Origin: Okeania sp.
GTDB taxonomy: Bacteria; Cyanobacteriota; Cyanobacteriia; Cyanobacteriales; Microcoleaceae
Assembly: GCF_035285525.1 (NCBI RefSeq)
Contig: NZ_JAYKGW010000139.1
Location: 1-6,421, forward strand
Length of the DNA: 6,421 nt
Direction: 5' to 3'
The stretch's first letter is position 1. Each line of letters starts with the position of its first letter. The position numbers were made by a program, and so were the translations under genes. Under the pieces are notes generated by a model. It was given only the letters and a program-made list of their open reading frames with translations, was not told the origin of the DNA and ran no database searches. Below, piece by piece: positions 1 to 6,421 of the stretch.

Positions 1-124
1 ATTAATTTTTTATCTAAGAGTTCAATGCTCAACCCAAAATTAAGTAAACCCGCCCCTGAAAATTAATTTTTTATCTAAGAGTTCAATGCTCAACCCAAAA
101 TTAAGTAAACCCGCCCCTGAAAAT
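1..124. repeat. Perfect 61-bp tandem duplication (1-63 identical to 62-124), abutting the window edge
   Basis: Read directly: attaattttttatctaagagttcaatgctcaacccaaaattaagtaaacccgcccctgaaa occurs at 1-61 and 62-122, and the next 2 nt also match. Each copy carries the ATG (25-27 and 86-88) and an AAACCCGCCCC half-site (46-56 and 107-117). More copies may lie upstream of the window. Confidence 0.95.
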
Positions 125-1690
125 CACAGAAAATCTCCTCAATCTGTTAACATACTTAAAAAACCCCATTATCCTAAAACCAGAAAAACTCCACAAATTA
201 GTTCTATTGACAAACCTAGGAGAGGTCAAAGAGAAGAATCATTTAACTGGCAAGAATTTTTATGGAAAGTGCAATCTTTACCTTGGCGCAAATGGATAAT
301 TGAATGGATAGGAATTACTTTGTTATTTGGTGGCTCTAGTTTAATGGCCGTGGGAGCATGGCTCAGTGTTAAGTTAATTTCCGATCCAAACGCGATAGTT
401 TCATTCAATCAAGTCTTACCAGGATGGACTAAATTTTACATATCAGGAAATAAGTCTTTAAAGACTTTGGAGCAAATTAAATCTAGTATAAAAGATGAAG
501 GGTTTAGCAGTGAAAAAATTTTTCCTCTTCCTAATACAAAAACAGATTCTGGTTCAGATTTATTAGTGCCAGTAATGCAGGAAATTGCATCTAGAGGTTC
601 GTTACCCTGTGAAACTCCTTGTCGAGAAGTGTTAGAGTTGCGGGTTTATGAGTCAGTTTTATCTATTAATCAACGAGAAGGCAGTCAACCATATTTTCGA
701 TTAGCTAATACTTTACCACTCAAAGGTCCAGCCGAATCTTTTGTTATTGCATCTACTATTGATGCCGATCGGGGTTCAAATCAACCTTTACCTCTGACAG
801 GTGTAAGTCAGTTTCAAGGGAAAGTTCCGAAAGCAGGAGTTTGGTTTACTGTCAGTGGTCAGAGATTACAAAATAATAAAGCTATTTTTTATGGGGAAAT
901 TGTGAATTATAATCCTCGTAAAAATTATTTAAGTTCCATGTTGAGATGGAAAAGTGCTGCTGGTCAAGCTCCGATCTGGCAGGAAATGACTGGAGGCGGA
1001 GATCCAGAGTTATTAATAGAGCAAACTGTGGGACTAGATCCTGATTTTGATATTTATTGGATTCAACCAAGAAAGTTTATACTTAATCCGATTAAATTGG
1101 AAGAAATTTCCCTGAGTGAAACTCCCATTGAAAAAAAGTCTTATCAAGATATTTTAAGGTTAGCTCGTAGTGGTTTATGGTCTCCTGCTTTGGCTTTAAT
1201 GAAACCTTTGCGAGCAAATTTAATGGATAAATCTCAATGGTCGGAAAAAGCCGAAGCTCAGTTTAATTTAATTAAGTTTCATGCCAAGATTACAGAAGCT
1301 CAAGCGATCGCTTCTTGGGCAAGTCCAAGTCAAAAAGTTTTAGCTGGTTTGATAGATGGCCGTTGGCAAGAAAGTCTAGATGTGTTTGAAAATAATTTGA
1401 GTAGCACTTATGATATCGTTAAGTTACTAGAAAATGATACTGGCCGTCTCACCAACCGAGTTGATGCCACTTTAAGAGTAGATCGAACTGAAGTTAATGC
1501 TTTAGCTTGGGGTGCTTTAATTTTGGCAAGTCAAAAAGGACGAAGAAGAGCAGTGTCATGGTTGAATAGACAACCTCAAACTAAAAAGGAGACAAAGGAG
1601 AAGGTTGGGAAATTATTGGATCAACTTGATGCTGCTGTGGCTGAAAATCAGACTATACAAAAACAAAAAACTGAGCGAAGTTTAAGATAA
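86..1690 (+). CDS. Uncharacterised membrane-anchored protein, 534 aa: basic K/R/P-rich N-terminus, one TM helix, large probably extracytoplasmic domain, helical K/Q-rich C-terminus
   Basis: A 1605-nt open frame is very unlikely by chance in such AT-rich DNA. ATG 86 is the first ATG after the in-frame stop at 41-43, and a weak SD-like AAGAG lies at 77-81. The hydrophobic segment spans aa 75-95, and the positive charge N-terminal to it suggests an N-in orientation. I do not recognise a named family. Confidence 0.85.
   Translation: MLNPKLSKPAPENHRKSPQSVNILKKPHYPKTRKTPQISSIDKPRRGQREESFNWQEFLWKVQSLPWRKWIIEWIGITLLFGGSSLMAVGAWLSVKLISDPNAIVSFNQVLPGWTKFYISGNKSLKTLEQIKSSIKDEGFSSEKIFPLPNTKTDSGSDLLVPVMQEIASRGSLPCETPCREVLELRVYESVLSINQREGSQPYFRLANTLPLKGPAESFVIASTIDADRGSNQPLPLTGVSQFQGKVPKAGVWFTVSGQRLQNNKAIFYGEIVNYNPRKNYLSSMLRWKSAAGQAPIWQEMTGGGDPELLIEQTVGLDPDFDIYWIQPRKFILNPIKLEEISLSETPIEKKSYQDILRLARSGLWSPALALMKPLRANLMDKSQWSEKAEAQFNLIKFHAKITEAQAIASWASPSQKVLAGLIDGRWQESLDVFENNLSSTYDIVKLLENDTGRLTNRVDATLRVDRTEVNALAWGALILASQKGRRRAVSWLNRQPQTKKETKEKVGKLLDQLDAAVAENQTIQKQKTERSLR
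308..370 (+). other. Predicted transmembrane helix of the 86..1690 protein (aa 75-95, IGITLLFGGSSLMAVGAWLSV)
   Basis: A 21-residue hydrophobic stretch, preceded by WRKW and a region of about 70 aa rich in K/R/P. The protein's only two cysteines (C175 at 608-610, C179 at 620-622, CETPC) lie after the helix. Confidence 0.7.
1304..1311. repeat. HIP1 octamer GCGATCGC
   Basis: Exact match to the highly iterated palindrome typical of cyanobacterial genomes, located inside the CDS. Confidence 0.9.
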
Positions 1691-1836: not shown

Positions 1837-1896
1837 GGGGGCGGGTTTAGCTGACTCTATGTCAAAACTTGTTAACTTAAGGTGGAAACCCGACCC
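1837..1896. repeat. Palindromic element, array copy A (right arm decayed)
   Basis: Left arm GGGGGCGGGTTT is at 1837-1848. Right arm AAACCCGACCC is at 1886-1896, and the A at 1893 breaks the stem. The core is 37 nt: agctgactctatgtcaaaacttgttaacttaaggtgg. Confidence 0.85.
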
Positions 1897-2016
1897 TACA
1901 ATAGTTGATTATATTAAATCCGGTAGGTAACATCAGTAAAATTAAAGAACCTAGGAGTTTTGTCTCCAAACCCTCTACAAAGCAAGCGGGTTCGACACTA
2001 TATCATTATATCATTA

Positions 2017-2076
2017 GGGGGCGGGTTTAGCTGACTCTATGTGAAAACTCGTTAACTTAAGGTGGAAACCCGCCCC
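2017..2076. repeat. Palindromic element, array copy B
   Basis: Left arm GGGGGCGGGTTT is at 2017-2028 and right arm AAACCCGCCCC at 2066-2076, with a 37-nt core. It is flanked by TA...TAC, so the full inverted repeat is about TAGGGG(G)CGGGTTT. Confidence 0.9.
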
Positions 2077-2184
2077 TACAATGGTGGATTATGTTAAATC
2101 CGGTAGCATCATTAAAATTAAAGAATCTAGGGGTTTGGTCTCCCAACCCTCTACAAAGCAAGCGGGTTCGACACTATATCATTA

Positions 2185-2244
2185 GGGGGCGGGTTTAGCT
2201 GACTCTATGTCAAAACTCGTTAACTTAAGATGGAAACCCGCCCC
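2185..2244. repeat. Palindromic element, array copy C; lies 40 nt downstream of the stop of the minus-strand gene
   Basis: Left arm GGGGGCGGGTTT is at 2185-2196 and right arm AAACCCGCCCC at 2234-2244. On the minus strand it is the first strong hairpin after the TAG at 2287-2289, but no U-run follows it on that strand. Confidence 0.9.
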
Positions 2245-2286
2245 TACTATTTTAATTGATAATGAATCTATTTATCTTTAGTTGAA

Positions 2287-5200
2287 CTATTCACAAACTT
2301 CTAAATTTTTCTTCACATCTGGATGAGTAACAAAATAATCTTTAAGCCAATCACAAGAACTTTTTAATAGATCATTTAACCCTTTCACCTGCCATAACTG
2401 TAAATCATTATCTACCAAAGTTGCTACATATTTACCATCCAAACTTAAACCCTTAGAATTTTCAAATTGAGCTATTTGTCGCCCAGTCAGATCCCAAACC
2501 TTTACCATACCATCTTTTCCCATACTAATCACCTGTTCCCTATCAGCACTAAAAATCACATTTTCTACACTACCAATATGCCCTTTTATCTCAGTAATTT
2601 GATTGCCGGAAAAATCCCATATTTTCACCATCCCATCACTATCTCCCGTAGCGACATAATCTCCTGATGAACTAAAACCAATACTTTCCATCCAACTAGA
2701 AACAATTTTTAACTCCAAGACAAGCTGCAAAGAACTATCAAAAATTTTTCCAATACCATCCTCTCCAGCAGTACCAATATATTTTCCATTCGGACTAAAA
2801 CTTATATCCAAAACTCGCCCATTATTACTTTCTAACTCAGCTAACTGCTGACCAGAATTATTCCATATCCGAGCAACACCATCTGCTCCCACCGTTGCTA
2901 AACGTTTTCCATCAGGACTAAAACTAATCTCTTTTTCCCTACCCTCTTCACCCTCTAACTCTATTAACTCCTCTCCCGAAACCTGCCAAATTTTTGCTTG
3001 ACCATTATCTCCAGCAGTTGCCAGACGTTGACCGTCTGGACTAAAATTCAGATCACCAAACATACCTGAATATCCATTTAATTGAGCTAAAGGGTTTCCT
3101 GAAATATCCCAGATACGGGCACTACCATCAACTCCCGCTGTTGCTAACCTCTGATGATTCGGACTGAAACTTACTGTCTCAAAAATATCAGAGTTTCCGG
3201 GAATTTTGACCTCGCCATTACCTTCTAATTCCCAAATCCTACCAGTACCATCTTCTCCTAAAGTTAATAATAATTCTCCATCAGAACTAAAGTTAAGTTC
3301 CAAAACTCGGCCATTATGTCCTTTAAGAGTAGTTAACAAATTACCATTACTGTTCCAAATTTTCACAATACCATCACTACCTGCTGTAGCTAGACGTTGA
3401 CCATTGGGACTAAAATTAACACTGGTGATAATTCCTTGATGTCCAGGAAGTTTCCCTAATAGTTGGCCAGAAACATCCCAAATCTTTCCTGCTCCATCTT
3501 CTCCGGCTGCAACTAACCTTTTACTATCGGGACTAAAGCTAAGATTCGAGACTTTACCTTTAAGTCTGGCATATAGTTGACCAGTACGACGCCACCAAAT
3601 TCTAATAGTGCCATCCCATCCAGCGGTAGCTAGGAGTCTACTATCTGGGCTAAATACTACTTTTTCGACACTACCTTTATGTCCTCTAAGCATAGCTAAC
3701 TGTCTACCTATTCGATTCCAAATTATGACAGTACCATCCCATCCAGCGGTGGCTAAATATTTTCCATCAGGACTGAATTTAATATCTAAGATGCGCTCTT
3801 GATGTTTGGTAAGAGTGGCTATTTTCTGGCCAGAGATATCCCAAATTATGGCAGTGCTGTCTTCTCCAGCAGTGGCTAGGAGTTGACCATCTGGACTGAA
3901 GGCGATTTGCCAAATTTTGCCTTGATGGCCTCTGAGTTCTACTCGCTGTTTGCCCTGAAAATCCCATATTCTGACTGTTCCGTCTTCTGCTGCTGTGGCG
4001 AGGAGGTTGTCTTTTGGGGAAAATTTAATGTGGGAGATTTTGCCTTGATGTCCTCTCAACTGAGAAATAGCTTGACCTGAGAATTTCAGGATTTTAGCTA
4101 TACCATCATTGCTGACTGTGGCTAATAGTTGATTGTTAGGACTCATGGAAATTTTTTTAATGTTAGGAATTTGGTTTTTTTCGTGAATATTATTGAGGAT
4201 TTGTTGTAGGGCAAATATGGGTGTTGTGGCTGGGTAATAGTGGAGGGAGCGACGGTCTTTGACTAATTTTTGGAGTTCTTTTCCTGTTTGGATTGCTGAT
4301 AGTAATGCTTCTATTTCTGCAAATTCAAATTGTTTGAGGGAGTTGATTCCTTGGCGTTCTAATTGTATTCCTAGTTGGGTTTCTTGGAGTTGATATGTGG
4401 TTTGTTGAAGTTGGTTTTGTTTATCTCTGAAAAGTTTGGTTGCCCAGGTGAGGCTGATTATGGCTACTACTGATAATAGGGTTAATCCTGCTACTCCTAT
4501 TTTTAGTTTATTGTTTGGTGAATTTTTACTTTTTTTCTGATTTGTTTGATTATGATGATGACTAATTTTTGATTTTGGTGTTTCTAGTTGTTTATGTTGT
4601 ACTTGAATTACATTATTATGATTAATTTCATCATTTTCTTGATTTGGTAATTTAGAAATATTTGGTTCTGGTTGAAGGTTGGTTGTTTTAGTGTTTAACT
4701 GATTTATATTGAATGGATTTTCTGGTTGTGTTGATTGTGGCTGAATTAGATTATGATTAGGATTTTTGTAATTTTCCTGATTTGGCAAGTTAGGGATATT
4801 TGCTCCTAGTTGGAAGTTTGTTGTCTGAGTGTTGAATTGATTTAAGTTTAATGGATTTCCTACTATTTTTTCTTCTGGATTAATGGCAACATGACTGTTA
4901 TTTTTCTGGTTGTGTTGAATTTCCGAATTAGATATATCTGGTTCTACTTGTCTGGTTTTTGTCTGATTTTGCGAATCATTTAATTCTAATTGTTCTTGAT
5001 TTATAGAAGCAGGCTGAGGGATTTGTGCTAGATATTTTTCTAGCCATTCTTGATTAAAAATTTCTGCATAAATAGGACTATATATTTCTAAAAATCCTCG
5101 ATTAATTTTGGCGATACCAGACCTTAATAGTTCTTTGATTTCCCATTTATGATTAGCGATCGCATCGTTTTTAAATCTTTGATTATTTTGACCGGGTGGT

Positions 5201-6162
5201 TTTAATTTGTCATATTTTAATAGTTGTTGATATATTTCTAAATGAGTTATAGATTTTTGGATATTTCTGAGTAACAATTGTTGGATTTTACTGAAATGAG
5301 CTGGATAGTCTTGAGCATCCCAATTTTCTACGACACAAACTTCGACTAAATCTTGTACTAAGGCTACGTCATCATAATTTTCTTCTCCTTGTCGTTCTGC
5401 TAAATAGTTAATAATTATTTGACATAATTTTTGAGTGAGGAATGGTTGTCCGCCAGACCAAAATAATATTTCTTCGATAACTTTTAATGGTTGTCTGACT
5501 ATTCTTTGAAAGCTATTAGCAAAATGAGCTACTTCTTCTATTTTGAAATTACTCAGTTCAATATATCTACAAATATCTACTAAATTATGAGGTACTGTTG
5601 TGCCTAATAAGGCAAATGTTAAACGTTTAAAGTTTTGATTATTTGCTCTTTCCTGGAGACAATAATCAACCAAAACTCCTAAACTACTCCAACCAGAATT
5701 AACTACATTATCATCATTAATTTCATCTATAAAAATAACAATCTTTTCATCTTGAGTCTGATCTAATAATACTTTTTCAATAAACAGAAATAATTTTTCA
5801 TCCCCACACATATCTGCGGTTTCTTCCCACCATAATTCTGGGAAATGTCGAGGAAAAATAAAACTTTTCTCTAAAGTTAAAATTACTTGATTATACCATT
5901 CTTCTAGAGTTAAAAGTTGATTATTAACTCTGGTCATATCTAGAGCAATACAGATAATATTTTCTGCTTGTAAAAGTTGAATAGTGCTAATTTTTAAACT
6001 TGATTTACCAGTTTGTGGAGAACTTAATACATAACAATATTCACCAGATTTCAAAGCCTGAAATAATTCTTGGTCTGCCCCTCGTTTAACATAAGTCGGA
6101 TGATTTGGTGTTAAATAATTGCCTACTTGATAATTATATTCTTGATTAGTTTGTATATTCAT
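2287..6162 (-). CDS. 1291-aa AAA-like (AAA_35/STAND-type) P-loop NTPase - Q/N-rich linker - TM helix - WD40 repeat protein (14 full blades plus a partial 15th)
   Basis: The 3876-nt open frame has a single possible start: ATG at 6162 is the only start codon after the in-frame stop at 6199-6201. The N-terminus YNYQVGNYLTPNHPTYVKRGADQELFQALKSGEYCYVLSSPQTGKSS, the motif IVIFIDE, and WSGGQPFLTQKLC match my memory of the cyanobacterial 'AAA-like domain' family. The C-terminal half is a 41-aa periodic FSPDG...LATAG.DG...IW WD40 pattern. Confidence 0.95.
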   Translation of the reverse strand: MNIQTNQEYNYQVGNYLTPNHPTYVKRGADQELFQALKSGEYCYVLSSPQTGKSSLKISTIQLLQAENIICIALDMTRVNNQLLTLEEWYNQVILTLEKSFIFPRHFPELWWEETADMCGDEKLFLFIEKVLLDQTQDEKIVIFIDEINDDNVVNSGWSSLGVLVDYCLQERANNQNFKRLTFALLGTTVPHNLVDICRYIELSNFKIEEVAHFANSFQRIVRQPLKVIEEILFWSGGQPFLTQKLCQIIINYLAERQGEENYDDVALVQDLVEVCVVENWDAQDYPAHFSKIQQLLLRNIQKSITHLEIYQQLLKYDKLKPPGQNNQRFKNDAIANHKWEIKELLRSGIAKINRGFLEIYSPIYAEIFNQEWLEKYLAQIPQPASINQEQLELNDSQNQTKTRQVEPDISNSEIQHNQKNNSHVAINPEEKIVGNPLNLNQFNTQTTNFQLGANIPNLPNQENYKNPNHNLIQPQSTQPENPFNINQLNTKTTNLQPEPNISKLPNQENDEINHNNVIQVQHKQLETPKSKISHHHNQTNQKKSKNSPNNKLKIGVAGLTLLSVVAIISLTWATKLFRDKQNQLQQTTYQLQETQLGIQLERQGINSLKQFEFAEIEALLSAIQTGKELQKLVKDRRSLHYYPATTPIFALQQILNNIHEKNQIPNIKKISMSPNNQLLATVSNDGIAKILKFSGQAISQLRGHQGKISHIKFSPKDNLLATAAEDGTVRIWDFQGKQRVELRGHQGKIWQIAFSPDGQLLATAGEDSTAIIWDISGQKIATLTKHQERILDIKFSPDGKYLATAGWDGTVIIWNRIGRQLAMLRGHKGSVEKVVFSPDSRLLATAGWDGTIRIWWRRTGQLYARLKGKVSNLSFSPDSKRLVAAGEDGAGKIWDVSGQLLGKLPGHQGIITSVNFSPNGQRLATAGSDGIVKIWNSNGNLLTTLKGHNGRVLELNFSSDGELLLTLGEDGTGRIWELEGNGEVKIPGNSDIFETVSFSPNHQRLATAGVDGSARIWDISGNPLAQLNGYSGMFGDLNFSPDGQRLATAGDNGQAKIWQVSGEELIELEGEEGREKEISFSPDGKRLATVGADGVARIWNNSGQQLAELESNNGRVLDISFSPNGKYIGTAGEDGIGKIFDSSLQLVLELKIVSSWMESIGFSSSGDYVATGDSDGMVKIWDFSGNQITEIKGHIGSVENVIFSADREQVISMGKDGMVKVWDLTGRQIAQFENSKGLSLDGKYVATLVDNDLQLWQVKGLNDLLKSSCDWLKDYFVTHPDVKKNLEVCE
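2380..4161 (-). other. WD40 repeat region (aa 668-1261): 14 full blades plus a 28-aa partial 15th, enough for two 7-bladed propellers
   Basis: I counted the blades by hand. Eleven are exactly 41 aa, and the other three are 35, 42 and 38 aa. The GH/KH dipeptide is present in blades 2-5, 7, 8 and 14 and absent in 6 and 9-13. The tail LNDLLKSSCDWLKDYFVTHPDVKKNLEVCE (aa 1262-1291) resembles the usual C-terminal cap of cyanobacterial WD40 proteins. Confidence 0.9.
4441..4500 (-). other. Predicted transmembrane helix (aa 555-574, IGVAGLTLLSVVAIISLTWA)
   Basis: A 20-residue uncharged hydrophobic segment, verified from the reverse complement of 4441-4500. It is preceded by QKKSKNSPNNKLK and followed by TKLFRDK. 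Confidence 0.75.
4501..5016 (-). other. Q/N/P/T-rich low-complexity linker (aa 383-554) containing a 46-aa-period internal duplication
   Basis: The composition is visible in the translation. Segments aa 436-476 and aa 482-522 align with 23 of 41 residues identical by hand alignment. The DNA-level duplication is visible at 4597-4857. The linker ends in HHH and a K-rich stretch just before the TM helix. Confidence 0.85.
5023..6138 (-). other. P-loop NTPase module (aa 9-380) with Walker A and Walker B plus a helical/winged-helix-like extension
   Basis: Walker A SPQTGKSS is aa 48-55 (nt 5998-6021). Walker B IVIFIDE is aa 141-147 (nt 5722-5742). Both were checked against the reverse complement. 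The conserved tail NRGFLEIYSPIYAEIFNQEWLEKYL resembles the end of AAA_35-type domains. Confidence 0.8.
5156..5163. repeat. HIP1 octamer GCGATCGC
   Basis: Exact match, inside the minus-strand CDS. Confidence 0.9.
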
Positions 6163-6292: not shown

Positions 6293-6319
6293 CACGGATG
6301 AGGCCACGGATACACGGAT
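6293..6319. repeat. Three closely spaced CACGGAT heptamers leading into the 28-bp array
   Basis: CACGGAT occurs at 6293-6299, 6305-6311 and 6313-6319. TCCGTGG at 6267-6273 is the exact inverted complement of CCACGGA at 6304-6310. Confidence 0.85.
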
Positions 6320-6421
6320 GGATTTAGGGATTTCTCTTGAGTTGCATGGATTTAGGGATTTCTCTTGAGTTGCATGGATTTAGGGATTTCTCTTGAGTTG
6401 CATGGATTTAGGGATTTCTCT
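6318..6421. repeat. Perfect 28-bp tandem repeat (ATGGATTTAGGGATTTCTCTTGAGTTGC), at least 3.7 copies, cut by the window end
   Basis: Units at 6318-6345, 6346-6373 and 6374-6401 and the partial unit 6402-6421 are identical. The unit contains TAG and TGA on the plus strand and TAA on the minus strand. Because 28 is not a multiple of 3, every frame meets a stop within 84 nt, so the array is non-coding. Confidence 0.95.

Follow-up and report, generated by a model that had tools for sequence, protein, structure and literature searches.

An AAA_35-WD40 protein of Okeania with a predicted membrane helix between its NTPase and its propellers

The stretch of DNA analysed here (the window; 6,421 nucleotides, positions 1 to 6,421 of contig NZ_JAYKGW010000139.1, Okeania sp. 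assembly GCF_035285525.1) carries on its reverse strand a complete gene for a protein of 1291 amino acids (aa), in which a nucleoside triphosphatase (NTPase) of the AAA_35 family precedes a long array of WD40 blades. A hydrophobic helix lies between these two halves. We propose, giving the idea about an even chance, that this is a single-pass membrane protein composed of a cytoplasmic NTPase switch, a transmembrane (TM) helix and an exported pair of WD40 propellers. A preliminary description of the same DNA had noted the helix without drawing any implication from it; considered together with the cysteine and charge statistics reported below, the helix does not fit an Avs-type cytosolic sensor.

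Topology of the protein

The stretch at aa 553-575 contains no charged residues, and the corresponding helix is hydrophobic in nine of nine orthologues (Kyte-Doolittle values between 1.95 and 2.22). Since this hydrophobic helix is single and internal, the NTPase and the WD40 halves would be placed on opposite sides of a membrane. The 15 residues that precede the helix carry from +4 to +9 charges in the orthologues, with 0-1 acidic residues (+4 and no acidic residue in the protein of the window), and the 15 residues that follow it carry from +1 to +3, with 1-2 acidic residues. The K/R-rich flank on the N-terminal side, read by the positive-inside rule, points to an N-in/C-out orientation, which also fits the need of the NTPase for ATP. 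In the structural model an unbroken helix extends from aa 558 to aa 612, so that the hydrophobic segment runs on into the stalk.

Avoidance of cysteine is a well-known compositional trait of exported domains. Each orthologue contains 6-7 cysteines before the helix, and in eight of the nine the approximately 720 aa after it contain only two, both invariant (the protein of Trichodesmium erythraeum, locus L007, has one extra). The WD40 region of the window protein (aa 661-1258) has no cysteine at all. The only two found after the TM helix belong to a cap motif that is conserved family-wide, LNDLLKSSC(1270)DWLKDYFVTHP...VC(1290)E, and are invariant in all nine orthologues, in which they occupy positions -21 and -1 relative to the C-terminus.

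Cysteines were also counted in 113 full-length AAA_35-WD40 proteins, in which a helix was scored at a Kyte-Doolittle value of at least 1.6 and the C-terminal tail of 45 aa was excluded. The median content after the helix was 0 cysteines per 100 aa in helix-bearing proteins (n = 95), as compared to 1.21 in helix-less ones (n = 18; Mann-Whitney p = 2.4e-13). In the NTPase parts of the same proteins the density was alike (1.30 vs. 1.25, p = 0.42). Helix-less members are found in at least seven separate places on the NTPase tree, and therefore the difference is not the effect of a single clade. The result was repeated in a second AAA_35 set (42 proteins with the helix and 22 without it, p = 3e-7). 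Related WD40 arrays carried by nSTAND1, Ser/Thr-kinase or sigma-70 heads have the helix in 18 of 20 cases, with a median of 0 cysteines after it. As far as we could find, this compositional signature of exported WD40 domains has not been described for the family.

Precedents also support exported propellers. CHASE2, a known extracytoplasmic sensor domain, is found fused to AAA_35 among the family matches. The WD-repeat protein Slr1410 of Synechocystis is annotated as periplasmic, and for other STAND systems of multicellular bacteria a sensor in the periplasm has been predicted (PMC10907252). On these sequence features, the NTPase is probably cytoplasmic and the propellers are probably exported, a topology that has moderate support.

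Domain order and predicted folds

The gene (Table 1) encodes in this order an AAA_35 NTPase, a Q/N linker, the TM helix, a stalk, 14 WD40 blades and a cap with two cysteines. A stop codon lies just 5' of the ATG, hence an N-terminal extension of the 1291-aa protein is impossible. The open reading frame (ORF), Walker A with its K53, Walker B, the WD40 array, the Q/N linker and the TM helix are all located where the preliminary description had placed them, and the lack of a recognisable effector, also noted there, agrees with Pfam, which gives AAA_35 and WD40 and no other domain in the protein. NCBIfam returned only spurious, WD40-driven matches below cutoff.

Table 1. Position of the features in the window
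Feature	Position	Strand	Residues (aa)	Remarks
Complete coding sequence	2287..6162	(-)	1291 + stop	ATG start, 3876 nt; from the ORF list
NTPase module: P-loop domain, helical domain, winged helix	5008..6162	(-)	1-385	
Walker A (P-loop)	6001..6024	(-)	47-54	SSPQTGKS, K53
Walker B	5722..5742	(-)	141-147	IVIFIDE; D146, E147; on model strand 141-148
Conserved GxP-type motif	5428..5454	(-)	237-245	GGQPFLTQK; start of helical domain
Disordered Q/N- and P-rich linker	4528..5007	(-)	386-545	34% Q+N, 8% P
Linker repeat, 2 x 46 aa	4576-4851	(-)	438-529	138-nt direct repeat, 73% identical
Predicted single TM helix, N-in/C-out	4438..4506	(-)	553-575	LKIGVAGLTLLSVVAIISLTWAT; Kyte-Doolittle 2.19
Stalk helix and small helical bundle before the propellers	4183..4437	(-)	576-660	73% identity among orthologues
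14 WD40 blades and partial closing blade	2389..4182	(-)	661-1258	Tandem propeller pair (model)
C-terminal helical cap	2290..2388	(-)	1259-1291	Helices: cassette residues 717-741
Neighbouring ORF	86..1690	(+)	534	Convergent with the AAA_35-WD40 gene
Tandem repeat, ~180-nt unit x 2.4	1837-2247			89% match; third, diverged copy to 2274
Perfect 28-nt tandem repeat x 3.7	6318-6421			ATGGATTTAGGGATTTCTCTTGAGTTGC; upstream of the gene, runs off the window end

The Pfam profile PF14516 (AAA_35) matches aa 19-246 with 48.9 bits (E value 5.4e-13, profile positions 8-239 of 331), as compared to a curated gathering cutoff of 27 bits, which bears out the profile match expected of the N-terminus. The gene is therefore an ordinary member of an annotated, functionally uncharacterised family, the 'AAA-like domain-containing protein'. 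Neither the N-terminal sequence nor the family profile found a meaningful match in the PDB. The residues that are invariant in a 104-sequence family alignment, in which the window protein is included, are all held (Y24, R27, D30, G52-K53-S54-S55-L56, W111, G187, G238/P240/F241/L242/K245 and H289); G52, K53, S54 and S55 are invariant in all orthologues as well, and the whole of 47-SSPQTGKSS-55 and 141-IVIFIDE-147 is invariant across the nine. G238, P240, F241, L242 and K245 form the core of a GGQPF motif, with a model helix at 240-256, and this motif is consistent with the GxP motif of STAND proteins, an equivalence that we infer. The orthogroup (Trichodesmium, Okeania and Dapis) departs from residues conserved in at least 90% of AAA_35 proteins at N47S, R49P, D149N, D160S, F161L, F162G and R166D (aa 47-55 and 148-166; window positions 6001-6024 and 5680-5720). 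These substitutions suggest a functionally shifted subfamily or an altered handling of the nucleotide.

The N-terminal 400 residues, modelled by AlphaFold2 from the 104-sequence alignment (predicted local distance difference test, pLDDT, 85.5; predicted template modelling score, pTM, 0.86), form an alpha/beta P-loop domain followed by a helical domain and, last, by a domain rich in helices that closes with a beta-hairpin; helices 265-348 and hairpin 351-360 give this last domain a winged-helix appearance. The best Foldseek matches in the PDB were the archaeal proteins SSO1545 (2fna, E 5e-9) and PABY2304 (2qen), with ORC/Cdc6 proteins scoring alongside them, followed by NB-ARC (NRC1, NRC3), CED-4, NLRP7 and NOD2 (E from about 1e-6 to 1e-4). 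SSO1545, PABY2304 and ORC/Cdc6 combine a P-loop domain, a helical lid and a winged helix in the same way as aa 1-400 (E 5e-9 to 3e-7, TM-score up to 0.53-0.58, identity 12-15%); these Arch_ATPase-type and ORC/Cdc6 proteins are however soluble and, unlike the window protein, have neither a TM helix nor a WD40 array. As modelled, the NTPase module lies at the boundary between ORC and STAND.

STAND features in the sense of Leipe et al. (2004) are present in the Walker A GKS with K53, the hhhhDE Walker B at 141-147 and the 14 WD40 blades. STAND/NLR proteins such as Apaf-1, CED-4 and plant NB-ARC, as well as Avs/bNACHT, consist, as the window protein does in its model, of an NTPase, a helical and a winged-helix domain followed by superstructure-forming repeats, and the WD region of Apaf-1 resembles the propeller pair of the window protein. 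In contrast with them, the window protein has no N-terminal CARD, effector or effector-associated domain (EAD), its NTPase is AAA_35 and not NB-ARC or NACHT, and a TM helix stands before its propellers. In overall plan it is STAND/NLR-like; the features by which Avs-type defence systems are defined, namely an effector, a model match and a defence context, were looked for and not found.

The NTPase module is followed by the linker, which gave no Pfam match (aa 386-545) and has a pLDDT below 50 from aa 386 on. The rest of the AAA_35 family has at this place an 'LRPY...LLRG...WA' segment, instead of which the orthogroup of the window carries the Q/N-rich repeats. The repeat unit of about 46 aa, with the conserved pattern NPLxLNxFNTQxTNFQLGANIxNLxNQEN, is present in two copies here and in three in Okeania L002; polar and hydrophobic residues alternate in it, which recalls amyloid-type signalling motifs. 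Its use as an amyloid-signalling motif common to a partner protein was considered and set aside as speculation, as no copy was found outside the orthologous genes at any retrieved locus.

The WD40 cassette is matched by Pfam WD40 in 13 stretches (E 8e-122). From aa 692 to aa 1257, fifteen blade-end motifs recur strictly every 41 aa, in agreement with the 14 blades and partial fifteenth counted in the preliminary description. At the DNA level, the region consists of 123-nt periodic repeats whose blades are 61-75% alike. The AlphaFold2 model of aa 546-1291 (pLDDT 89.6, pTM 0.86) contains about 58 strands and the C-terminal helical cap, preceded on the N-terminal side by helices at cassette residues 13-67, 71-89 and 102-113. 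Its best PDB match is a cyanobacterial propeller of 14 blades, 2ymu (36% identity, E 2e-51), and the next ones are tandem propellers, the WD region of Apaf-1 (E about 1e-34 to 1e-36) among them. The closest solved structure, 2ymu, is the 'highly repetitive propeller' of Nostoc punctiforme and comprises a propeller fragment only; in contrast to it, the blades of the window protein are not near-identical copies.

As regards layout, the closest proteins are the transmembrane Ser/Thr receptor kinases, in which a cytoplasmic head, one hydrophobic helix and a beta-propeller follow one another, as in the kinase-TM-beta-propeller protein PknD of M. tuberculosis. In fact, homologous WD40 cassettes were found behind Pkinase heads in five proteins (P0423, P0437, P0456, P0461 and P0473), each with a hydrophobic helix. 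They differ in that the head of the window protein is an NTPase switch, for which a covalent output is not evident. A similar overall plan may be that of Hat of Synechocystis PCC 6803: in work attributed to Hisbergues et al. in 2001, Hat reportedly consists of two domains, with a hydrophobic linker of about 20 aa and C-terminal WD repeats. It is said to be localised at the thylakoids and to be needed for high-affinity inorganic-carbon uptake. It differs in its unicellular host and in the 11 repeats reported.

Orthologues, neighbourhood and selection

Full-length orthologues (NTPase region 74-84% identical, total length 1304-1374 aa) were found in Okeania sp. SIO2F4, three Dapis strains, one 'Cyanobacteria bacterium' metagenome-assembled genome (MAG), T. 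erythraeum IMS101 and four Trichodesmium MAGs; the orthologue of Dapis BLCC M229 is cut by a contig end, and that of Trichodesmium MAG L010 is a fragment. The relatives are therefore not Nostocales, as had been supposed, but the Oscillatoriales Trichodesmium, Okeania and Dapis. The identical 1291-aa product was found in one short Logan contig only. Outside the orthogroup, which is a divergent branch of AAA_35, identity to the rest of the family falls to about 36-40% and the matches merge into a very large family. The close homologues number 431 and are cyanobacterial wherever named; among the 120 of them listed, 116 have Walker A near residue 50.

An exhaustive search with the AAA_35 profile gave 11,696 representatives at 50% identity; an E value of 1e-30 or lower was reached by 5,779 of them. 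Hence the gene is not the 'lone giant' of the preliminary description: its architecture is common, and the family has thousands of members. The C-terminal partners of AAA_35 are WD40, TPR, REC, CHASE2 or Macro, or there is none. The full-length query retrieved 120 full-length AAA_35-WD40 relatives of about 1100-1390 aa, from hosts that include Okeania, Trichodesmium, Coleofasciculus, Nostoc, Tolypothrix, Phormidium and Symploca, and hundreds of annotated cyanobacterial proteins share with the window protein the NTPase, the helix, the 14 blades and the C-terminal motif. Many AAA_35 representatives (P0241-P0386) have either 2-6 matched stretches, as expected of tandem modules, or a module that starts at about residue 360-770; where the module lies behind another N-terminal region, the relative does carry extra N-terminal domains. 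In the literature we found nothing on the function of the AAA_35 family, which is not named in the STAND surveys published in eLife in 2020 and in Nature in 2026.

Identity among the orthologues is 80% in the NTPase, 77-78% in the propellers and 50% in the linker, and the ratio of non-synonymous to synonymous substitution rates (dN/dS) is 0.20-0.42, 0.09-0.51 and 0.47-0.84, respectively. Neither measure gives the propellers a faster pace of evolution than the NTPase, and the dN/dS of the propellers indicates that the putative sensor is under purifying selection and is not diversifying as in an arms race.

The neighbourhood is partly conserved and includes metabolic genes (RPE65 oxygenase, acyltransferase, thioredoxin-like). 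An RPE65-type carotenoid oxygenase lies upstream in Trichodesmium (L007-L009), Okeania SIO2F4 (L002) and Dapis BLCC M229 (L003). A Condensation/PapA_C acyltransferase and an exported thioredoxin-like protein are encoded downstream at most Trichodesmium and Dapis loci and in the P01_H01 MAG; the Okeania strains have only the thioredoxin-like gene downstream, and P-II and a thiamine pyrophosphate (TPP) enzyme upstream. The most consistently kept neighbour is a 192-aa Thioredoxin_2-like protein (L007 15936-16514; also in L004, L005, L008, L011, L012 and L013), with a signal-peptide-like N-terminus and a single cysteine, which is absent from the window. As a redox partner of the two-cysteine tail it was discarded, since it has no CxxC and is missing from the window; the acyltransferase, although co-directional and downstream, was discarded as an operon partner because neither Okeania nor the window has it. 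In two Dapis strains, the place that RPE65 occupies in other relatives is taken by a divergent nSTAND1-WD40 gene. This gene (L006 326-5569 (-); L005 1-2796 (-)) encodes a 1747-aa protein with a hydrophobic helix at about aa 793, between the NTPase and WD40. In Okeania L012 (GCA_010672625.1), a small TIR gene and a gene for a 1330-aa TIR-WD40 protein (19129-23459) are situated some 5.5 kb from the orthologue, on its downstream side; of these two, the sister strain L013 has the small one alone, which indicates a variable, conflict-like patch near the locus.

No effector gene was found in the conserved neighbourhood. PADLOC gave for the full-length protein only a WD40-driven match to HEAT-ARM_XIII, for the N-terminus only PDC-S20 (E 0.0043 over 39 residues), and no match for nine neighbouring proteins in T. 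erythraeum (+/-10 kb). The defence-model check proposed for the gene thus returned WD40-driven or marginal matches only, and none for the T. erythraeum neighbours; the locus is no recognisable defence island, and its synteny is partly conserved. Core and strictly syntenic orthologues linked to housekeeping had been named as the finding that would speak against a conflict role. Of this, conservation across three genera and purifying selection were observed, whereas synteny is only partial.

In the window itself, the gene is flanked, as described before, by a convergent neighbour (ORF 86..1690) and by repeat-rich DNA with 180-nt and 28-nt tandem repeats. The neighbouring ORF encodes a protein with a basic N-terminus and a single hydrophobic segment at about residues 70-98, which had no match in Pfam, NCBIfam, PADLOC, the PDB or the contig index and is absent from 12 of 12 orthologous loci. 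The product is thus an orphan or a fast-evolving membrane protein, and for the same reasons the ORF gives no help in assigning a function to the AAA_35-WD40 gene. Window positions 1-124 are a perfect 61-nt direct duplication, and since the ATG of this ORF lies inside copy 2, its true start, or the local assembly, is uncertain. Each of the ~180-nt units (1837-2274) contains inverted arms, GGGGGCGGGTTT...AAACCCGCCCC, and looks like a hairpin or a miniature inverted-repeat transposable element (MITE), with related half-sites at 1702-1722, 1749-1771, 45-55 and 106-116; an 11-mer of this repeat occurs eight times in the window and is absent from the roughly 175 kb that make up the 12 orthologous loci of other genomes. 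The 28-nt repeat has no spacers and is therefore not CRISPR-like; it could be an artefact of the assembly end. The intergenic repeats are specific to the window, with no copies in related loci. The tRNA scan of the window was negative, Rfam gave only a sub-threshold chance match to a snoRNA, and the scan for promoters and terminators stayed at chance level.

Proposed mechanism and alternatives

In the mechanism that we favour, the NTPase, helical and winged-helix module of ORC/Arch_ATPase/STAND type (aa 1-385) would stay in the cytoplasm. The disordered Q/N tether would connect it to the TM helix (aa 553-575), which would be followed by the stalk, the helical bundle, the propeller pair and the two-cysteine cap, and everything past the helix would be located across the membrane, either in the periplasm or in the thylakoid lumen. 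The exported propellers may bind a protein or an envelope ligand, and the signal would pass via the stalk and the TM helix to the cytoplasmic NTPase, causing its nucleotide-dependent oligomerisation as in STAND/NLR proteins. The NTPase/winged-helix platform might then recruit or release cytoplasmic partners. The direction of the signalling and its output are what we infer; recruitment or release of partners is preferred to catalysis because an enzymatic effector domain is lacking across most of the family. In a wider and more tentative proposal, which we hold to be quite possible but would not call probable, the AAA_35-helix-WD40 proteins, together with their nSTAND1, kinase and sigma-factor versions, would constitute a large unrecognised class of 'inside-out NLRs', in which a cytoplasmic STAND-type switch would be wired by one TM helix to exported WD40 double propellers that may sense periplasmic or thylakoid-lumen ligands.

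Several observations weigh against this mechanism. The topology derives from hydropathy, charge bias and cysteine statistics, and the comparison of cysteine contents was only roughly corrected for phylogeny. The flank on the C-terminal side of the helix is also positive, by 1-3 charges. The two-cysteine tail is present in helix-less, presumably cytoplasmic, paralogues too, and hence need not be a disulfide. The substitutions N47S, R49P, D149N and R166D in the clade mean that ATPase activity is not assured, and no conserved co-transcribed partner gene was found in the orthologous loci.

A physiological role of another kind is unlikely, but of the alternatives we consider it the most credible. 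Here the NTPase would act from the inside outwards, governing how an exported WD40 platform is assembled or positioned; this platform would organise proteins of the envelope or of the thylakoid lumen, and the role would be comparable to the one reported for Hat. The conservation of the orthologues under purifying selection, the metabolic genes alongside and the fact that WD40 propellers are generic scaffolds all agree with it, as does the legacy 'Hat/HatR' annotation of one family member, the phenotype of Hat being cited in PMC4057619. That label, however, is of the RAST type and is attached to many WD40 proteins, and a conserved operon partner was not found in the orthologous loci. It is rather improbable that the protein is wholly cytosolic, with the hydrophobic segment buried as an oligomerisation helix that does not span a membrane. 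The AlphaFold2 pLDDT of the segment is low (36-57) and some paralogues have no helix, as such a reading would allow; but 21-23 uncharged residues with Kyte-Doolittle values of about 2.0-2.2, K/R-cluster flanks and a conserved hydrophobicity are difficult to reconcile with it, and it leaves unexplained why cysteine depletion tracks the presence of the helix. The identical layout with Ser/Thr-kinase heads also argues against a cytosolic protein. Such heads are commonly found in transmembrane receptors.

The remaining two alternatives assign the protein to biological conflict, as the preliminary description did when it suggested a STAND-type switch and a candidate sensing or conflict system; the STAND-like fold of AAA_35 agrees with that suggestion, while nothing that we found specifically supports the conflict role. 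It is slightly less probable still that the protein is a membrane-anchored conflict system, whose propellers would sense a phage, competitor or non-kin signal and whose TM helices, clustered by the NTPase, would damage the membrane, the helix itself being the effector. The evidence on topology is shared with the mechanism proposed above, other candidate effectors are absent, periplasmic sensors are predicted in other STAND systems (PMC10907252) and the family shows lineage-specific expansion; against these points stand the absence of a defence-island context, the purifying selection on the sensor and the vertical conservation across three genera with metabolic neighbours, and a pore made from a single TM helix is pure speculation. 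Least probable of the four is a cytosolic Avs/NLR-like antiviral or death sensor, in which WD40 would bind a phage protein and the oligomerisation of the NTPase would trigger an unrecognised output. This alternative draws on the STAND-like fold, whose structural matches include NB-ARC, CED-4 and NOD2, on the Apaf-1-like double propeller, on the great size of the family and its many paralogues, as is typical of NLR-like expansions, and on the nearby nSTAND1-WD40 (Dapis L005/L006) and TIR-WD40 (Okeania L012) genes. Yet an effector domain is missing here and in most of the family, PADLOC found no match to Avs or any other NTPase model, and no defence genes were present within 10 kb on either side in T. 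erythraeum. Moreover, a conserved helix parts the NTPase from the propellers, cysteine depletion of the exported type follows the helix, and the propellers, on which purifying selection acts, equal the NTPase in conservation.

Cyanobacteria, above all the filamentous ones, have many STAND-like NTPase-WD40 proteins, almost none of which has a known function, and these are usually treated as cytosolic analogues of NLR proteins and Apaf-1. The gene described here is a conserved, ordinarily evolving member of its family, and not a unique single-gene defence system. If its helix truly spans the membrane, a large share of such proteins, this one included, would combine a cytoplasmic switch with a sensor outside the cytoplasm, and the ligands to be sought would be envelope, periplasmic or lumenal ones and not cytosolic phage proteins. 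This would also change the reading of the evolutionary link to the eukaryotic apoptosome and NLR proteins, as well as the treatment of STAND-WD40 proteins in catalogues of defence systems. The cysteine-depletion signature offers a cheap and general test, applicable to all bacterial STAND proteins that contain repeats. If the 'inside-out NLR' reading is true, these cyanobacteria would possess receptor-like, extracytoplasmic analogues of NLR proteins, and many of the WD40 arrays that abound in cyanobacteria would not be cytosolic.

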